Virus record (IMG/VR): IMGVR_UViG_2541047843_000007
Origin: a virus
Lineage: Duplodnaviria; Heunggongvirae; Uroviricota; Caudoviricetes
Length of the DNA: 9,265 nt
Direction: 5' to 3' (one strand)
The first letter of the stretch is position 1; every line of letters starts with the position of its first letter. A program made the position numbers and the translations under genes. The notes under the pieces were generated by a model. That model was not told the DNA's origin, searched no databases, and was given only the letters and a program-made list of their open reading frames with translations. Positions 1 through 9,265 of this stretch are shown here, piece after piece.

Positions 1-70
1 GAGTCTTGAGTCTTGAGTCTTGAGTCTTGAGTCTTGAGTCTTGAGTCTTGAGTCTTGAGTCTTGAGTCTT
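1..70 (-). repeat. Perfect heptanucleotide tandem repeat, (GAGTCTT)x10 on the + strand = (AAGACTC)x10 on the - strand. The tract runs to the window edge, so true copy number is >=10.
   Basis: Direct reading: 70 nt of uninterrupted 7-bp units, ending at position 70. Lies inside the 5' end of a minus-strand ORF starting at 75. Confidence 0.95.
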
Positions 71-75
71 AACAT
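1..75 (-). CDS. neuO: 5' end of a neuO-like phase-variable polysialic acid O-acetyltransferase gene (start codon only; rest of gene is left of the window).
   Basis: Minus strand reads ATG (75..73) TT then (AAGACTC)n, translating as M-L-(RLKTQDS)n. AAGACTC tracts at the 5' end of neuO, located downstream of the tailspike gene in prophage CUS-3, are established knowledge. Possible SD TAGGA about 8 nt upstream. The acetyltransferase body is not visible, so the identification rests on repeat identity and synteny. Confidence 0.6.
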   Translation of the reverse strand, partial: MLRLKTQDSRLKTQDSRLKTQDSRL

Positions 76-228
76 ATTAGTATCCTACGTTATTTTACCA
101 CTAGTTACTTTTCTTGTCATTAAAAAGCATTTAAATTTTTATATTTAATTTCGTTGACGTCAATGTTTTTTGCCAATGTACTTACTTCTTTATGTGATCA
201 GTTCATATTTTTGACGCCAACGAAACAT

Positions 229-3174
229 TTAGTGCTTCCCTTCTATTAAGTCTAACCTAGCTTTTATTCTTTCTATTTCTCTGCGCTGCCATGCTGCCTC
301 GATATAGAATAAGAGATCAGGTCTGACCCCCCATCTAGATCCTGCTGGCGTTATTTCAACGCGCTCAATGATGTCTTCCATTACCATCACTGGATTATCA
401 TCCTCATCAACAATGATGCTCCCGTCATTATCAGTCAGCGGCATTTCCCTTTGGCCAGTAATGACGTCATCATATACTGCGGGATAATCGTCATAGCAAA
501 GAAAGGCATAGCGGCATGTTGTGCTTTCTTCTTCCATGAGTCCGTGAGAAATAAGAACATCACGAAGTTGCTGCGCGATTACACCATGATGTATCCTCGC
601 CCCTTCTTCCCCCTTTATAGCGACAGCGTTCAGCCATTTATAAGCGATATACCTGACGTCACCCCAGGCATCCAGCAATGTTTCGTCAGGAGAGACCGGC
701 TCTGTCTTTAATGTTCCGTCACTGGTAACCACAGGATTGGAGCCAAGATAAACTATCGAGAACCTGTTTCCCGGACCACCAAGAGCATTTACATTATCAA
801 GATAAGGTTTAACATCTCCGTTCTCAAAAAGATGTTCGAGTGCGTTATATACCGCGCGACGTGGAGTACTGCTTCTGGAACCATGCAACGTTATCATTGC
901 ACCATCTGCTGAAGACGTTGTTTCACCGCCGCTAACGATTAATCTCTGAGCGGTAACATCATCAGACGGTACTTTCTTCGCAATAATGGCGTAATTACCC
1001 TCAAGTTTGACTTCCGCGCGAACTTGTCCTGATGTACCTGCATGGACAGTCAGTGACTGGACGGCAACATCATCTGTGAAATCAACGGGTACAGGAACCG
1101 TCCTCACGCCTGACGTCGACATAAAAGTAGGAAGCGTTCTGTTAGGAGTGGCTCCGTAGACAAAATCCCTTGAAACAAATTCTTCCTGTTTAATTTTCAC
1201 CCTGAAACAATACAAATCAGCCGGGTGACCATCGTGAACATAAGGATATTTTCTGTTGTTATCCCCTATGCTCCATGGGTTTAGAAAGTCTTCCCCACCG
1301 AAAATGTAGTACAGCCAGTTGTCTTTGATACAAACTGAACCAACACCAACCGCAGAGTTAACTATTCCGCCCTGATAAATCTGATCAGTAACATTAACCC
1401 ACTCTACATTATCCAGACTCCACTCATTGACGTTAACTCTGGTCATAAATGTTCTTGGATAGTTTCCTGCATAACGGTTATCAGGTTCTCCTCCTTCCCA
1501 CTCACCAAATGCGCGCTCACTGCCAAAAATAATCAGCTCATCGCCAACTTTGGCAAAAGGAAGGTTTGAGTGATGAACATTATTTGGGAAGCGAAGAGAA
1601 TTCCATGATGTACCTAAATCAGAGCTTCTGTGCAATGAACTACCGGGTTGAGTACTTAATGTCCCCCTGGTCGTCAGATACAGAATGCCATCATAATATT
1701 TTACACATGGCTCAGATGCATTCGCCTCATATTCTGCAGGTATGCGTCTGCGAACAAAGCTACCAGGAGAACCGAAAGCATCAGAGAAATAGAGTATCCC
1801 AAGCTCGCGTGGACCAATATCACCATTATGGTAGCCAACAGCAAAACTGTTATCGCTAATCGTCGCAAAACTGTGAATCTCAGTAACAGGAGTGCTTCCG
1901 TCAACAAAAGAAGGAATAGTTCCAAGACTGGTTTTTCTCCATGGTGACGAGTGAAATGATGTACCAAAACTCCAGTATCTACCCTCGTTATTCTGATCCA
2001 CATCCTGGGTATTTTGCGTCGTAACTGTAAAAGTATTTTTATCAATAACAGTAGTCACCGTCATATTCCCGGTAACACCTGTAACACCAGAGTTTGAGAA
2101 GTTGACAAAATCACCAGCAAATAATCCGTGATCAGTAATGCGAATATAAGCGACTTGCTGATTTGCTGCTTTCGTTATACCACCATAAACGCGAAGGCTG
2201 CGACTCATTGGGCGATCCCACAACTCTGCAACCTGCAGTTTATTTCCGCTCACGGTCCGCGTCTCAATTACAGCAAAAAGGCGATTTCTGACAACCCCCA
2301 TACTCATGCAGTGATAGTTAACTGTGGGATAGTTTTCATGTAAATCTGTAAGCCATTCCGGCGTTGTCCAGGTCTTCCCGTCATCTCCTGAGCGAACCCA
2401 TGCAACATGGAGGTTATTTACACCATGGCGGTCTCCAGCCATAAAAGGCGCATAGATGACATTGTCATATACAAACGTTTTATCCTGCGTCCAGGCGTTG
2501 TACCACGGTGTATCTGTAATTTTAAATAACTCTCCCTGGATAAAATCTTCAGAAACATAAAAAAGAGGCTGACCCGGTATTCTCTCAAATAAAAAACGAG
2601 CATTTTTAAATCGACTGACATCTGGAAGAGTTGATACTTTAAAAGTAAGCCCTCGCCCATCTATCTTTTCACCACCTGTTGCAACAGAAAGTAATTCTGA
2701 TAGAGCTGATGTATCATCATGAACACCATCACCAATAGCCCCCCAACCTCTTACATCATAACTGTCTCTCCATCTTGCTATCTGAAGTTTTGGGTATTTA
2801 TTCGCTCCATCTGGGTCTTCTAATTGCTGCCGTAGTTGATCAGGATCATACTTCAGCACATTCTGGAAATAGAACTGCTGTACGCCATACGCATCGTACA
2901 CAGCCATAGAATGGCCTTGCACAGTTACGAACTTGGCAATCCGTCCGTTATATACAGGGTAACCAGCAGCGTTAATGATGATTGGTTGCGAAACAGGAAC
3001 GTGAGAGCCGTCTTCGTTCTCTACATAAACCTGAATCCGGTTTTCAGGATTTACCGGGTCAGTGTCAATTTTACCGATATAAATTTTGCCATTGGCTACG
3101 GCTTTAAAAGAACGCGCCATAGTGAAGAGTTGCGAAGGCATCGATACAATCACATTGGCTGTAATGTCTGTCAT
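229..3174 (-). CDS. Tailspike protein with endosialidase (endo-N-acetylneuraminidase) module, 981 aa: P22-type head-binding N-terminus, sialidase central region, C-terminal intramolecular chaperone-like domain.
   Basis: Single uninterrupted 981-codon ORF. N-terminal ~110 aa (MTDITANV...[21 protein letters not shown]...VYNG...[12 protein letters not shown]...NVLKYDPDQ) closely matches the P22 gp9 head-binding domain as I recall it. Two sialidase Asp-box motifs (S-x-D-x-G-x-T-W) are present: SGDDGKTW and SSDLGTSW. The C-terminal ~150 aa resembles the autocleaving chaperone domain of K1-phage endosialidases. GGAG lies ~10 nt upstream of the ATG at 3174. Confidence 0.9.
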
Positions 3175-3232
3175 TTAATTTGCTCCAGATGCAAAGAATC
3201 GCCGCAGCATGGCCACGGTGAATTTTGGGCAT

Positions 3233-3255
3233 AAAAAAACCCAGCCGAAGCTGGG
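3233..3255 (-). terminator. Rho-independent terminator (minus strand) between the 147-aa ORF and the tailspike gene.
   Basis: Minus strand reads GC-rich stem CCCAGC (3255..3250), UUCG tetraloop (3249..3246), GCUGGG (3245..3240), then a 7-U run (3239..3233). It sits ~20 nt past the stop of the ORF at 3275..3718. Confidence 0.6.
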
Positions 3256-3274
3256 TCGTTGCGTTGGTTATCTG

Positions 3275-3718
3275 TCAGTAATTATGTACTGAAGGAGGTA
3301 ATTCTTTATTCTTAAGTCTCATCCATGCGGAAAGATTCGTTGGTCCGTCTGGCTCATTGATATCAACATCTCGTGTGTGATTGATTAAAACGTCTCTCGC
3401 CATATCGATAATACGGGAGAACTCATAACCGCAGTCATGACATCTGCCGGAATAGTTCGATTGAATTTGTTTTAGCGCCGGATACAGTTCGCGGAATAAT
3501 GCCTGTGAGCGGTTGGCATAATCCCATAGCCATACAAGGCTGTTTGCTTCTTTTGCAGAAAGCTCGTTGGTTTTCTTCTCTTGTTTGCCGATGAACTCAC
3601 CTTCAAGCACTACCCTGTGGATGTACTCTACTGCTTGTGGTATCTGAGATGCATCAAGCTCTTCAATACTTTCCACATTGAAACGCTGATGAATCATTGC
3701 ATAAGCTTCTGGGTACAT
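3275..3718 (-). CDS. Hypothetical protein, 147 aa, no recognised family; possibly the 3' remnant of a longer gene cut by IS911.
   Basis: 444-nt ORF on the tailspike strand, followed by a terminator. No convincing SD before the first ATG. The frame stays open upstream into the IS911 end (stop only at 3746..3748, inside the IS), consistent with 5' truncation. Contains a CHDC motif, but no domain I can name. Confidence 0.45.
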
Positions 3719-3808
3719 TAGATGCTTTTTGCTGACTGAAGTGGTTTACTGAATTTGGCCACCTGAACAGAGGTGATATGCTCACCTCAGAACAACACAG
3801 GTGCCATA

Positions 3809-4956
<1,148 letters not shown>

Positions 4957-4986
4957 CTCGGTGGCCAGTTTTTGTTGACCACTTCA

Positions 4987-5157
4987 ATGCAACAGTTCGC
5001 TATTGCAGGGGCGGCATCGGTTCGCCCTTTCAACCCGATTTTATCGGTACAGCATTCACGAAAAAACATTTTAACCGGAGCAGACTTTAAACAACCAAGA
5101 ATGAAAAGCTTGCTCGAAAAGCTTTGGGATATTTTGAAACAACAAGGCCGTCCATGA
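4987..5157 (+). CDS. Small hypothetical ORF (56 aa from the ATG at 4987); possibly the distal part of a gene truncated by IS911.
   Basis: The ATG is the first triplet after the IS911 right end and has no SD. The stop overlaps the next start (ATGA at 5154..5157), suggesting membership of an operon. Confidence 0.3.
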   Translation: MQQFAIAGAASVRPFNPILSVQHSRKNILTGADFKQPRMKSLLEKLWDILKQQGRP

Positions 5158-5312
5158 GTTTTACGGATAACTGGTCAGACGAAGAATTCATTCGTCAGAT
5201 AAAAGAATTAATCGGTAACGAAGGAGATATTCATGTCACTTGCAACCACAGTGAAGGAGAGCAAGTTACAGAGACGCATGTACACGCAGAAAGCTCTCTG
5301 GTATCGCCATAA
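5154..5312 (+). CDS. Small hypothetical early protein, 52 aa, immediately upstream of erf.
   Basis: ATG at 5154 with AAGG about 7 nt upstream. ATGA overlap with the preceding ORF. The position matches the small kil/arf-type genes that precede erf in P22-like phages, but no sequence recognition is claimed. Confidence 0.4.
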   Translation: MSFTDNWSDEEFIRQIKELIGNEGDIHVTCNHSEGEQVTETHVHAESSLVSP

Positions 5313-5413
5313 TGGTGACCGCGAAGGAATGCGGGTATGCCTTAATTTGTCCCGAGTCGAAGTATTAAATCAGCGTTATTTCCTTGGGCCGTGTCCATTC
5401 TGAGAGCAATCAT

Positions 5414-6019
5414 ATGAGCAAAGAATTTTACGCAAGACTGGCAGCTATTCAGGAGAATCTGAACGCGCCAAAGAATCAGTACAACTCATTCGGCAAATAT
5501 AAATACAGAAGCTGCGAAGATATTCTTGAAGGCGTTAAGCCGTTACTGAACGGTCTGTTTTTATCAATCAGCGATGAAGTTGTGTTGATTGGTGATCGGT
5601 ATTACGTGAAAGCCACGGCAACTATTACCGATGGCGAAAACAGTCATACGGCAACCGCTCTTGCACGAGAGGAAGAAAGCAAGAAAGGAATGGATTCTGC
5701 ACAAGTTACGGGAGCTACAAGCTCTTATGCACGCAAGTATTGCCTCAATGGTTTGTTCGGCATTGATGATGCGAAAGATGCAGATACAGACGAGCATAAA
5801 CATCAGCAGAACGCAGCAGCAAAGCAATCAAAACCATCACTTACACCTGAACAGGTTCTAAAAGCATTCACTGACGCAGCAATGCAGAAAAACACCGTAG
5901 AAGAGCTTAAACAGGCGTTCGCCAAAGCGTGGAAGATGCTCGAAGGGACGCCGGAGCAGCACAAAGCGCAGGACGTTTACAACATCAGACGAGACGAATT
6001 AGAAGGGGCAACTGCTTAA
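5414..6019 (+). CDS. erf: Erf (essential recombination function) single-strand annealing protein, 201 aa.
   Basis: N-terminus MSKEFYARLAAIQENLNAPKNQYNSFGKYKYRSCEDILEGVKPLL matches P22 Erf as recalled. The tool ORF begins at a TTG at 5384; the ATG at 5414 is preferred. Its stop overlaps the next start (TAATG). Confidence 0.8.
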   Translation: MSKEFYARLAAIQENLNAPKNQYNSFGKYKYRSCEDILEGVKPLLNGLFLSISDEVVLIGDRYYVKATATITDGENSHTATALAREEESKKGMDSAQVTGATSSYARKYCLNGLFGIDDAKDADTDEHKHQQNAAAKQSKPSLTPEQVLKAFTDAAMQKNTVEELKQAFAKAWKMLEGTPEQHKAQDVYNIRRDELEGATA

Positions 6020-6402
6020 TGGCACATTCGATTACAGTAAGACTAAACAAACCCGCAAGAGAGTTTCAGGGCGGGGAAAATATCGGATTCAACATCCGTG
6101 CTGGCGTTCAGTATTACGATCGCCAGACAAAAAAGAAAGAATGGACAAACTACAGCGCCGTTGTATTTGCCAAGCCGGGAGCGCAAGCGGATTACTATCG
6201 TAGCGTTCTGGTTGAAGGAGGCATTGTAGAAATTACCGGAGAAAACATCAGGGTTGATGTTTATCAGGGGCAAAATGGTCAATCAATCACTCTTGAATTA
6301 CTGAATGCAAAGATTGGATTTGCAACTTCAGGAAACAGCCAACAGCAGCAAAGTAGCAATCATCAAAATAATCCTGAATACGACGATTCCATCCCATTCT
6401 GA
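6019..6402 (+). CDS. Phage single-stranded DNA-binding-like protein, 127 aa, with an SSB-type acidic C-terminal tip.
   Basis: ATG at 6019 overlaps the erf stop (TAATG), suggesting translational coupling. The protein ends in DDSIPF (compare the canonical SSB tail DDDIPF), preceded by a Q/S/N-rich linker. The N-terminal ~100 aa has an OB-fold-like alternation (EW..YSAVVF). The tool ORF from 5929 is an upstream extension overlapping erf. Confidence 0.65.
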   Translation: MAHSITVRLNKPAREFQGGENIGFNIRAGVQYYDRQTKKKEWTNYSAVVFAKPGAQADYYRSVLVEGGIVEITGENIRVDVYQGQNGQSITLELLNAKIGFATSGNSQQQQSSNHQNNPEYDDSIPF

Positions 6403-6425
6403 TTTAGAAAAATAAGGATTTAATT

Positions 6426-6722
6426 ATGCCAGCGCCTTTGTATGGTGCGGATGACCCGCGCCGCTGTTCCGGCAATTCCGTATCGGAGGTGCTGGATAAA
6501 TTCAGAAAAAACTACGATCGAATAATGTCTCTACCGCAGGAAACGAAAGAGGAAAAGGAATTTCGCCACTGTATATGGCTTGCAGAGAAAGAAGAACGCG
6601 AGCGAATTTACCAGACATCAATCCGACCATTCCGCAAAGCCACATATACCCACTTCCCTGAATATATCGACCCGCGCCTGCGTAATTACCGCTCACGCTA
6701 TGGCGCTATCAGTAATGACTGA
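6426..6722 (+). CDS. abc2: Abc2-like anti-RecBCD protein, 98 aa (assignment from position and size; exact sequence not recalled).
   Basis: ATG at 6426 with AAGGA 7 nt upstream. 98 codons, the size I recall for P22 Abc2. It lies downstream of erf in the same operon, as abc genes do in P22. Confidence 0.55.
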   Translation: MPAPLYGADDPRRCSGNSVSEVLDKFRKNYDRIMSLPQETKEEKEFRHCIWLAEKEERERIYQTSIRPFRKATYTHFPEYIDPRLRNYRSRYGAISND

Positions 6723-6816
6723 GGAATTTACCATGAGAGGACTTGCTTAAGAGAAAGAGTTTCGGTTCTGTTAATGACAACAAATATCTGAATGCGATGT
6801 GGCGGAGTGGGAAGAA

Positions 6817-7335
6817 ATGAAACAAATGTCACTAATTGAGATGGATGGTTTTCTGAAAGGTAAATGCATCCCAAGTGATTTAAAGGTTAACGAAACAAAC
6901 GCTGAATACCTTGTCCGTAAGTTCGGTGAACTTGAATCAAAACTGGAAACGGCGTTGCGGGAGTGTAGTTCTGCTGGAATCACGATTGATAACCTTGAGG
7001 CTAAATGCGCGAAGATGGCTGCTGAAAATACCTCACTTAAGCAATCTGAGAAGGAATTTAATGACTTTTGTCGTGAGGAGTTTAGCGAATGGGAAGATGA
7101 TGTTACTGAAACCCCAGCCACCGATGCTTTTCTGGCTGAAGTGCGGGCGCAGGGGGTGGATGCTGCTATAGAAGCTGCAAAAAATCTGGTGGCCCAAGAA
7201 TATGAGTATAAGGATTTCAAAGCGGCGCAGAGTGATTGCTGTATGCACCCTGGTTCAGACCTGGTAGGGAAGGTTGAAATGACTGAGTGGTTAGTTGACT
7301 TTGCTGCCCAGCTTCGCAAAGGAGGCAACCAGTGA
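6817..7335 (+). CDS. Hypothetical acidic protein, 172 aa; first gene of a translationally coupled cassette.
   Basis: ATG at 6817 with GGAG 9 nt upstream (the tool ORF starts at a GTG at 6799). The stop overlaps the next start (GTGA). The large antisense ORF 6771..7568 is rejected as a shadow. Confidence 0.6.
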   Translation: MKQMSLIEMDGFLKGKCIPSDLKVNETNAEYLVRKFGELESKLETALRECSSAGITIDNLEAKCAKMAAENTSLKQSEKEFNDFCREEFSEWEDDVTETPATDAFLAEVRAQGVDAAIEAAKNLVAQEYEYKDFKAAQSDCCMHPGSDLVGKVEMTEWLVDFAAQLRKGGNQ

Positions 7336-7631
7336 CTGTATGTCTTATTGATAAACGTCGACGTGGGCAACAAATACCATCTGTTGAAATGCCGAATCAC
7401 ACATGGTTTTGCGTACTTGATATCGATGGTATGGATACGTTGGTTGACACTCGTCATTACTGCGATACCGCAACAGCTACTCCGGCGAAAGCAAAGAAAA
7501 TGGCTGCTCTGATAGAAAACTGGACTCCACCTGATGGTTGGTGCAATGGGAATGATCGAGATTGGCACGAAAAAATGAAGGGCTATATCTGCGATTTTTT
7601 ACGTAAATGCAACGGCTTCAGGGGGATGTGA
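7332..7631 (+). CDS. Hypothetical Cys-rich small protein, 99 aa.
   Basis: GTG start at 7332 with AGGAGG 6 nt upstream, overlapping the previous stop. Six Cys and several His are spread through the protein, so metal binding is possible but unproven. Confidence 0.55.
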   Translation: MTVCLIDKRRRGQQIPSVEMPNHTWFCVLDIDGMDTLVDTRHYCDTATATPAKAKKMAALIENWTPPDGWCNGNDRDWHEKMKGYICDFLRKCNGFRGM

Positions 7632-7632
7632 T

Positions 7633-8205
7633 ATGACCAAAATTAACTATCAGGCACTGCGTGAGGCGGCAGAACGTGCAATTCCGGCAATGGAACGCCT
7701 GTTAATGTTGCCAGTTGATGATGATTTGTTAAGTGAACAGGAACTTAAGGATTACGGTGTGGATATTGATGCGCTCAACGCCTTCAAATTTCTGACCGGA
7801 CCAGAAACCGTGCTGGCGCTGCTGGATGAACGGGAAAGAAACCAGCAATACATCAAACGCCGCGACCAGGAGAACGAGGAAATTGCGCTAACGGTAGGGA
7901 AGCTGCGCGTTGAGCTGGAAGCTGCAGAGAAGCGCATTGCAGAACTGGAAGCCGAACCTGTAAGCCAAACTTACAAGTTGAACGAGCTGTCGGGCAACTA
8001 TCCGGTAACTCCGGATGGTTGGATAAGCTGTAGTGAGCGAATGCCCGCTCAAGATGATTGGATTTTAATTTATTCAAAGCACGGCGAGTATATGGCAGGA
8101 CAGGTACAAGGGGAATACGTGGAGTTGAGCGACGGCACTTTATCGTGGTTAGGGAACGCCTTGTTCTGGATGCCGCTACCAGAACCGCCGCAGGAGGTTA
8201 ATTGA
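7633..8205 (+). CDS. Ead/Ea22-like protein with a C-terminal DUF551-like region, 190 aa.
   Basis: ATG 1 nt after the previous stop (TGAtATG). The N-terminus (MTKINYQALREAAERA...) is typical of lambdoid Ea22-family proteins as recalled, and the C-terminus (PDGWISCSERMP...LFWMPLPEPP) resembles DUF551. Coiled-coil-like middle (ELEAAEKRIAELEAE). Confidence 0.65.
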   Translation: MTKINYQALREAAERAIPAMERLLMLPVDDDLLSEQELKDYGVDIDALNAFKFLTGPETVLALLDERERNQQYIKRRDQENEEIALTVGKLRVELEAAEKRIAELEAEPVSQTYKLNELSGNYPVTPDGWISCSERMPAQDDWILIYSKHGEYMAGQVQGEYVELSDGTLSWLGNALFWMPLPEPPQEVN

Positions 8206-8399
8206 TGGTCTCCTTCGCGAAATATACGATTATTGACTGGATAGCATTCATTCAGGTTTTGCTCATCTGGTTTTATATGGCTTACAGGAGTGGACAGTGG
8301 ATTGTCAGTGTAGCCTGTAGCAATGGATGGCGTTGGTGGAACCGAAAGAATAAAAAAAGCGCTGGCCTTGGCTTCGTTTTACGAAGCATTCAATCTTAA
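8205..8399 (+). CDS. Small putative single-pass membrane protein, 64 aa.
   Basis: ATG at 8205 overlaps the previous stop (TGATG), with AGGAGG 7 nt upstream. Hydrophobic segment IIDWIAFIQVLLIWFYMAY followed by a basic stretch (WNRKNKK). Confidence 0.5.
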   Translation: MVSFAKYTIIDWIAFIQVLLIWFYMAYRSGQWIVSVACSNGWRWWNRKNKKSAGLGFVLRSIQS

Positions 8400-8482
8400 C
8401 AGTCTTCAGCCTGGTTCTGTCGTTGTAGTCACCACTCAAAGCGGCATGACGATACAAATTCACAAGCCAAAGGAGGAAGGTC

Positions 8483-8767
8483 GTGGCTAACCTGCAACTT
8501 GCCGTTAAAGGTGAATACTTCGATGCCATGATTCGCGGAGAGAAAACGGAAGAGTATCGCCTGTGTAATGACTACTGGAATAAGCGAATTATGTTCCGCG
8601 AGTATGACCGCCTGATTATCACAAAGGGATATCCGAAGCGCGACGATTCCAGCCGCAGAATTGACGTCCCGTATGACGGATATGAAATCAAGACAATCAC
8701 ACATCCGCACTTCGGCGATAAACCGGTAAAGGTATTCGCTATAAAGGTGAATATCGACAATGAATGA
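8483..8767 (+). CDS. ASCH-motif (PUA-like) small protein, 94 aa.
   Basis: GTG start at 8483 with AGGAGG 6 nt upstream. Contains G-x-K-x-x-E-x-R (GEKTEEYR), the ASCH signature as recalled. Confidence 0.6.
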   Translation: MANLQLAVKGEYFDAMIRGEKTEEYRLCNDYWNKRIMFREYDRLIITKGYPKRDDSSRRIDVPYDGYEIKTITHPHFGDKPVKVFAIKVNIDNE

Positions 8768-8839
8768 TAATCCTCGCACTCGCGGGGATTTCTTTTATCT
8801 GAACTCGCTACGGCGGGTTTTGTTTTATGGAGATGATAA

Positions 8840-9007
8840 ATGCACTTCCGAGTCACAGGTGAATGGAATGGAGAGCCATTCAACAGAGTTATCGAAGCAG
8901 AGAACATCAACGACTGCTATGACCACTGGATGCTGTGGGCGCAGATAGCACATGCAGACGTAACTAATATTCGAATTGAAGAACTGAAAGAACACCAAGC
9001 CGCCTGA
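8840..9007 (+). CDS. Small hypothetical protein, 55 aa (below the ORF-track size cutoff); the overlapping ORF 8760..8948 is the alternative.
   Basis: ATG at 8840 with GGAG about 8 nt upstream. Translation MHFRVTGEWNGEPFNRVIEAENINDCYDHWMLWAQIAHADVTNIRIEELKEHQAA. The stop TGA (9005..9007) lies in the loop of the terminator hairpin. It reads as more protein-like than the out-of-frame 8760..8948 ORF, but which one is real cannot be decided without homology. Confidence 0.35.
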   Translation: MHFRVTGEWNGEPFNRVIEAENINDCYDHWMLWAQIAHADVTNIRIEELKEHQAA

Positions 9008-9019
9008 TGGCGGTTTTTT
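8999..9019 (+). terminator. Rho-independent terminator closing the accessory operon, upstream of the excisionase-like gene.
   Basis: Stem GCCGCC (8999..9004), loop TGAT, stem GGCGG (9009..9013), then a 6-T run (9014..9019). Confidence 0.6.
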
Positions 9020-9064
9020 ATTGCCTGATTTGCAGGTTCGATTCCCTATTCGGAGATAGCACTC

Positions 9065-9265
9065 ATGCAACACGAACTACAACCTGATTCACTGGTTGAT
9101 TTGAAATTCATCATGGCCGATACTGGCTTCGGTAAAACCTTCATCTATGACCGGATTAAGTCCGGCGACCTGCCAAAAGCCAAAGTTATCCACGGGCGAG
9201 CAAGATGGTTATATCGTGACCATTGTGAATTCAAAAATAAGCTCTTAAGCCGCGCCAATGGGTAA
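9065..9265 (+). CDS. Excisionase / AlpA-family winged-helix DNA-binding protein, 66 aa; an integrase gene is expected just beyond the window.
   Basis: ATG at 9065 with GGAGA about 9 nt upstream. Translation (FIMADTGFGKTFIYDRIKSGDLPKAKVIHGRARWLYRDHCEF) fits the AlpA/Xis helix-turn-helix pattern. It is the last gene of the early-left arm, where xis sits in P22-like phages. Confidence 0.6.
   Translation: MQHELQPDSLVDLKFIMADTGFGKTFIYDRIKSGDLPKAKVIHGRARWLYRDHCEFKNKLLSRANG

Follow-up and report, generated by a model that had tools for sequence, protein, structure and literature searches.

The closest described relative of the gene reported here is siaK1 of CUS-3, a P22-like temperate phage of E. 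coli K1 whose tailspike is an endo-alpha-2,8-sialidase. The modular origin and the endosialidase activity of this protein are already published (Stummeyer 2006, PMID 16689790), and the GenBank record of Enterobacteria phage CUS-3 (CP000711) annotates it as an 'endosialidase tailspike protein' with endo-alpha-sialidase activity, GO evidence IDA, on the basis of the same paper. The CUS-3 tailspike has also been presented in review as an example of module exchange, P22, Sf6 and HK620 sharing its N-terminal domain and K1F its catalytic one (PMC5380687). The K1F endosialidase gp17 (endoNF; PDB 1V0E, 3GVL and 3GW6) shares the propeller, barrel, stalk and C-terminal chaperone of the protein studied here, but carries a T7-type N-terminal adaptor where the latter has a P22-type head-binding domain. 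Conversely, the tailspikes of P22 (gp9), Sf6 (gp14) and HK620 have a homologous N-terminal head-binding domain, whereas the parts that bind the receptor are O-antigen endoglycosidases of the right-handed beta-helix type, and past residue 120 or so the similarity is gone. The phage endosialidases (endo-N-acetylneuraminidases) make up family GH58 of CAZy.

We analysed a stretch of 9,265 nucleotides (hereafter the window) from the virus record IMGVR_UViG_2541047843_000007. An open reading frame at positions 229..3174 of the minus strand begins with ATG, contains zero internal stops and encodes 981 residues. A tblastn search against phage records aligned all 981 of them with siaK1 of CUS-3 (ABQ88383 / CAJ29292), a protein of the same length with the same order of domains, the neuO repeat downstream of its gene and ant upstream. 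We can say with near certainty that the frame is an allele of siaK1, stranded in a decayed prophage; nothing contradicting the identification as CUS-3 SiaK1 was met. In a profile search six Pfam domains tile the protein in order. The features of the gene, all on the minus strand, are the following:

229..3174, minus strand: endosialidase tailspike gene (siaK1 allele), 981 residues, intact, 99.4% identical to CUS-3 SiaK1
2836..3174, minus strand: residues 1-113, particle-binding domain, Head_binding PF09008 (profile positions 1-113 of 113, E 3.8e-64)
2539..2739, minus strand: residues 146-212, endosialidase N-terminal extension, End_N_terminal PF12218 (E 2.9e-37)
1189..2538, minus strand: residues 213-662, catalytic six-bladed beta-propeller, End_beta_propel PF12217 (profile positions 1-367 of 367, E 1.2e-233)
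2368-2391, minus strand: residues 262-269, Asp-box SGDDGKTW, an S-x-D-x-G-x-x-W motif within the propeller
1957-2205, minus strand: residues 324-406, beta-barrel inserted in the propeller, End_beta_barrel PF12195 (profile positions 1-83 of 83, E 1.2e-46)
1603-1626, minus strand: residues 517-524, Asp-box SSDLGTSW, again S-x-D-x-G-x-x-W within the propeller
724..1188, minus strand: residues 663-817, stalk, End_tail_spike PF12219 (E 6.7e-78; the alignment with PDB 1v0e ends at T817)
232..723, minus strand: residues 818-981, C-terminal intramolecular chaperone domain (PF13884 and PDB 3gw6)

The first-pass annotation, made from the sequence alone, had proposed a three-part chimera, and comparison with profiles and structures bears it out in each part. 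The first 110 or so residues had been likened to the particle-binding domain of P22 gp9, with similarity ending there. Besides the complete Head_binding match, the P22 tailspike aligns with residues 1-117 (E ~1e-51), matches to the gp9 structures (PDB 8tvr, 2xc1 and 1lkt) are limited to a segment from residue 1 to about residues 117-126, and Sf6 gp14 (PDB 7sg7) matches residues 1-118 with E values of about 1e-64 to 1e-66. The central region had been called a sialidase module from two Asp-boxes that might have been chance hits. Both boxes, starting at residues 262 and 517, lie inside a full-length match to the endosialidase beta-propeller profile, the barrel profile is likewise matched in full, and the K1F endosialidase structures (PDB 1v0e/3gvl) match residues 145-817 with E = 0. 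Finally, the C-terminus, said to resemble the intramolecular chaperone of endosialidases, matches Peptidase_S74 (PF13884) over residues 818-878 with E 2.8e-10 and 40.8 bits, against a curated Pfam cut-off of 22, and the K1F C-terminal chaperone construct (PDB 3gw6) over residues 698-979 with E 1.8e-93; the Ser/Lys pair of the endosialidase-type chaperone is kept. The architecture of head-binding, sialidase and chaperone parts is thus far above chance level.

Functional residues were mapped by alignment with K1F gp17, translated from AM084414. The two proteins are 64% identical over residues 114-980 of the tailspike and 70% identical in the propeller. K1F residues E581, R596 and R647, which reportedly have the catalytic roles described by Stummeyer and colleagues in 2005, correspond to E488, R503 and R554 here, and the motifs around them (ASEPC, TRGT and GSERA) are conserved. 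The PDB entry 3gvj is a K1F R647A mutant, which fits a catalytic role for R647. The K1F pair T910/S911 and K916 correspond to T817/S818 and K823, within the motif PVVT/SDGTLKT, and in the K1F record AM084414 the boundary between mature peptide and C-terminal domain is annotated exactly at the homologous residue. We predict autocleavage between T817 and S818, with K823 five residues downstream of the serine. In the stalk, K1F Q853, which we take to be part of a sialic-acid-binding site, aligns with M760 and is hence a point of difference between both proteins. As far as can be read from its sequence, the protein has all the parts for folding, self-processing and cleavage of polysialic acid.

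These parts suggest how the protein would act if the phage were complete. Its N-terminal head-binding domain would dock the trimer on a P22-type tail machine, and the beta-propeller, through Glu488, Arg503 and Arg554, would bind and cleave the polysialic acid capsule and so give the virion access to the outer membrane. Folding of the trimer would be chaperoned by the C-terminal domain, which would then remove itself by a Ser818/Lys823-dependent cleavage after Thr817.

Comparison with the CUS-3 gene at the nucleotide level showed that the differences between both alleles are concentrated at one end. A total of 26 codons differ, 20 synonymously and 6 non-synonymously, all within roughly the first 130 codons; the six substitutions fall at residues 43, 46, 78, 98, 104 and 121, that is, in the head-binding domain and the linker. 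Beyond codon 130 or so the window and CUS-3 are nucleotide-identical. Enzymatic activity of the present allele would follow from its overall identity to SiaK1, the catalytic part being the same to the nucleotide. The tail fibre of the Uetakevirus vB_EcoP_ZX5 (QTH80017) is 99.5% identical in nucleotide sequence to window positions 261-2653, corresponding to residues ~174-971, but its N-terminal adaptor is unrelated and longer, bringing the protein to 1039 residues, and the phage is epsilon15-like, not P22-like. The shared stretch takes in the catalytic module and the chaperone domain. The near-identity of this module in ZX5, together with the confinement of the divergence from CUS-3 to the head-binding domain, shows ongoing exchange at the boundary between adaptor and catalytic module, which is the principle of Stummeyer et al. 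2006 as summarised in review (PMC5380687).

These same observations could be taken to mean that the gene is retained in prophage remnants by selection, either as a domesticated enzyme for turnover, remodelling or trimming of the capsule, or as a donor module of K1 specificity. We hold this to be very improbable. In its donor version, which we rate just as low, superinfecting P22-like or epsilon15-like phages would switch to K1 by acquiring the module, the P22-like ones through recombination in the conserved head-binding domain. A near-identical catalytic module in an unrelated podovirus genus does indicate recent module exchange, and divergence restricted to the head-binding domain is consistent with recombination there. 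Selection would also account for a frame that has stayed open in several remnants with different deletions (the window and the loci of 19AR1321, CEA212U and PE144, described below). However, these remnants are 99-100% identical in nucleotide sequence, which leaves too little time for decay and makes intactness uninformative. Moreover, the gene is not always spared: at least 80% of it is carried by 181 of 5,426 complete E. coli genomes, but it is interrupted by an IS in FY26 and reduced to its last 403 nt at the 3′ end in APEC E12053.

The state of the surrounding prophage also has to be considered. The features flanking the tailspike gene are the following:

1..75, minus strand: 5′ end of neuO (polysialic acid O-acetyltransferase), ATG at 75-73, placed from the repeat and the equivalent CDS start in PE144
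3238..3257, minus strand: intrinsic-terminator-like hairpin between the ant remnant and the tailspike start (8-bp stem with 5 GC pairs, then TTTTTTT), a putative function
3275..3736, minus strand: 3′ remnant of ant (antirepressor), 462 nt, truncated by the IS (Pfam P22_AR_C, E 7.2e-29)
3737..4986, plus strand: IS3-family element, ISEc52-like, 1250 bp, bounded by imperfect terminal inverted repeats of 27 nt and encoding a transposase with HTH_Tnp_1 and rve domains
4987..9265, plus strand: surviving right arm, comprising the distal early-left operon, erf, abc2 (anti-RecBCD), ead/Ea22-DUF551, an ASCH protein and a TorI-like excisionase
9065-9265, plus strand: the TorI-like excisionase within that arm

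After its ATG, neuO continues into 10 perfect AAGACTC phase-variation heptads (GAGTCTT on the plus strand, positions 1-70), an array that is incomplete because the window starts inside it. This poly(psi) repeat is likewise annotated beside siaK1 in the CUS-3 record, and phase variation of neuO through this repeat has been described mechanistically (PMC8653822, PMC13001214). The locus in PE144 is 100% identical over window positions 1-3737, and an acyltransferase CDS starts at its equivalent of position 75. The element at 3737-4986 is annotated as ISEc52 in near-identical genomes, where the ant remnant is a partial pseudogene by annotation; a full ant occupies the same position in CUS-3 and PE144. 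Comparison of both flanks of the element (left ...ctgac, right atgca...) revealed no target-site duplication.

Alignment with CUS-3 gives the extent of the loss. Window positions 1-3607 correspond to CUS-3 2298-5904 with 98.5% identity, and positions 5154-9045 correspond to CUS-3 36317-40207 with 99.8% identity, while the interval between them in CUS-3, from ~5905 to 36316, has no counterpart in the window. About 30 kb are hence absent, with the IS at the junction. This sets the window apart from the CUS-3 prophage, and confirms the earlier suggestion that the tailspike is stranded in a prophage deprived of its virion genes. The loss extends further than that, to lysis, replication and immunity. 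Compared with CUS-3, the window lacks the 5′ part of ant, mnt, and the genes for injection, head completion, coat, scaffold, portal, terminase and lysis, together with Q and nin, and also O/P, cII, cro, cI, N, cIII and kil. The hallmarks of a CUS-3-like prophage are nevertheless present: siaK1 has as its neighbour the phase-variable neuO, marked by the AAGACTC repeat, and early-left genes of P22 type are there as well. Closed genomes contain near-identical loci at the CUS-3 site, flanked by argW-intS on one side and dsdC on the other. Lacking the full complement of genes for the virion, lysis, replication and immunity, the prophage is a non-functional remnant of a CUS-3-like (Lederbergvirus) argW prophage.

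The adjacency of tailspike and erf can be explained by an internal deletion. An inversion was considered and rejected, given that the prophage order in CUS-3, Sf6 and KplE1-type phages is int-neuO-tailspike ... erf-xis. Indeed, prophages with this recombination module normally have an integrase gene by the tailspike end and an excisionase gene at the far end (PMC2951348). Since int at attL and the excisionase at attR are normal, a deletion suffices to produce the window. This deletion, which is associated with the IS, took out the 5′ portion of ant and all that followed as far as a point shortly before erf. Candidate routes are intramolecular transposition with loss of the adjacent DNA, and recombination of one IS copy with another.

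A mis-join during assembly at a repeated IS copy would produce the same sequence, with a full prophage present in the source genome. Copies of an IS are classic points of mis-assembly, and the two exact junctions of the window are not found together in any complete E. coli genome of the collection, CEA212U having the right junction only. We nonetheless regard such an artefact as extremely unlikely, because deletions of this kind, each with a single IS, occur at this chromosomal site in closed genomes. The comparison covered complete genomes with a single IS copy 100% identical to that of the window and with different flanks, as follows (lengths relative to the window):

CEA212U (L007): left of the IS, ant 253 bp less; right, same junction as the window
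19AR1321 (L001): left of the IS, ant 104 bp more; right, 152 bp less
PE144 (L008): left of the IS, ant kept through a truncated injection gene; right, all lost up to just before torI
AH21I008 (L003): left of the IS, a holin gene; right, a truncated replication gene

In 19AR0253, as in 19AR1321, ant is 104 bp longer and the right side 152 bp shorter. An identical right junction in CEA212U, and nested endpoints in 19AR1321 and PE144, argue against a mis-join in the window, as does the fact that decay of this kind is already in the literature: CUS-3-like prophages at argW have been described in which the distance from neuO to dsdC is down to ~8 kb (PMC9659370). Judged from the equivalent loci, this distance is ~9.4 kb here. 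The series as a whole suggests that the prophage has been eroded in a nested manner, with the IS as the anchor.

Two seemingly one-sided junctions in other genomes (H27 and H34) were also considered as a case of recombination between two IS copies seen separately, but lend it no support, as the IS positions are unrelated. The copy in L003 sits between the holin gene and the truncated replication gene, and that in L004 belongs to another prophage, located at bio.

The deletion bears on the present state of the tailspike gene as well. With all other virion genes removed, there is no longer a particle for the protein to join. Also gone are the late promoter/Q system and the promoters of the ant region, and a crude consensus scan of the minus strand between the IS and the tailspike start (3174) found no promoter-like site. 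The loss of its normal promoters and the terminator-like hairpin just upstream suggest that the gene is probably a passenger with little or no expression. Some transcription may still arise by read-through out of the IS or at a cryptic promoter. Both the deleted promoters and the upstream terminator speak against retention by selection for a capsule-modifying enzyme, and so does the lack of a signal peptide or lysis system to deliver the enzyme to the capsule. Furthermore, hitch-hiking with the adjoining neuO, which is documented as advantageous to K1 strains (PMC9659370, PMC13001214), accounts for retention without it. The tailspike gene has probably survived through its place between the eroding zone and neuO.

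The tailspike is a textbook case of module shuffling, in which a P22-type particle-binding domain is fused to a K1-capsule depolymerase. Through such a fusion a temperate podovirus acquires neuroinvasive and uropathogenic E. coli K1 as its target, and the same prophage carries neuO, a modifier of the K1 capsule. The chimera was known before, every one of these points being already in print for CUS-3, and the window provides one further allele and one further example of prophage decay. It also has a minor practical value, in that defective prophages are seen to keep endosialidase genes intact; these may be mined as enzymes or may re-enter phages by recombination.

Comparison of the endosialidase tailspike gene (the siaK1 allele) with siaK1 of the E. 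coli K1 prophage CUS-3 revealed 26 codon differences, all of them within approximately the first 130 codons (window 2780-3174), which encode the head-binding domain and linker, whereas beyond this point the two genes are nucleotide-identical. This confinement suggests that a recombination breakpoint lies close to the boundary between domains. Phage vB_EcoP_ZX5, an epsilon15-like Uetakevirus, carries the catalytic and chaperone parts of the endosialidase too, as a module that is 99.5% identical at the nucleotide level (window 261-2653, corresponding to 3123-5515 of L006, the locus carrying the ZX5 tail fibre) but is joined to a different N-terminal adaptor. Such near-identity on a different adaptor points to a very recent passage of the module between podovirus genera.

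A 98.6%-identical endosialidase tailspike is encoded in a second P22-like prophage (locus L004, from NZ_OZ038590.1; positions 8115-11060 of the locus), beside the bio operon and ybhB. Its position matches the less common second insertion site described for CUS-3-like prophages, between pgl and bioA (PMC9659370).

At the window start lies the 5′ end of neuO, the polysialic acid O-acetyltransferase gene, with the following features:

1-70: phase-variation array, truncated where the window begins; 10 perfect repeats of GAGTCTT, which reads AAGACTC in the coding direction
75-73, minus strand: neuO ATG
120..92, minus strand: strong promoter-like site, 10/12 positions matched plus an extended TG

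Because the window edge cuts the repeat array, the ON/OFF phase of neuO cannot be read from the window.

At the right end, the annotated attR core that closes the CUS-3 GenBank record corresponds to about window 9030-9045, and a further ORF lies past the end of that record:

9065-9265: TorI-like excisionase ORF

This ORF is included in phage phiv205-1; the CUS-3 record stops before it. Either the CUS-3 att annotation is too short, or the excisionase comes from an older KplE1-like remnant.

The deletion junction is occupied by an insertion sequence:

3737-4986: IS3-family element, ISEc52-like, without target-site duplication

Immediately to its right, 167 bp (window 4987-5153) precede the point where homology with CUS-3 resumes. 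They are missing from the CUS-3 record and are shared by numerous prophages of E. coli, those in APEC O1 and ATCC 11775 among them; the early-left region is thus, judging from its sequence, a mosaic variant of that of CUS-3. In other complete genomes (19AR1321, AH21I008, CEA212U and PE144), a 100%-identical copy of the element is present in the same prophage with different, nested endpoints, suggesting that CUS-3-like prophages at argW have been eroded repeatedly, anchored on the IS.
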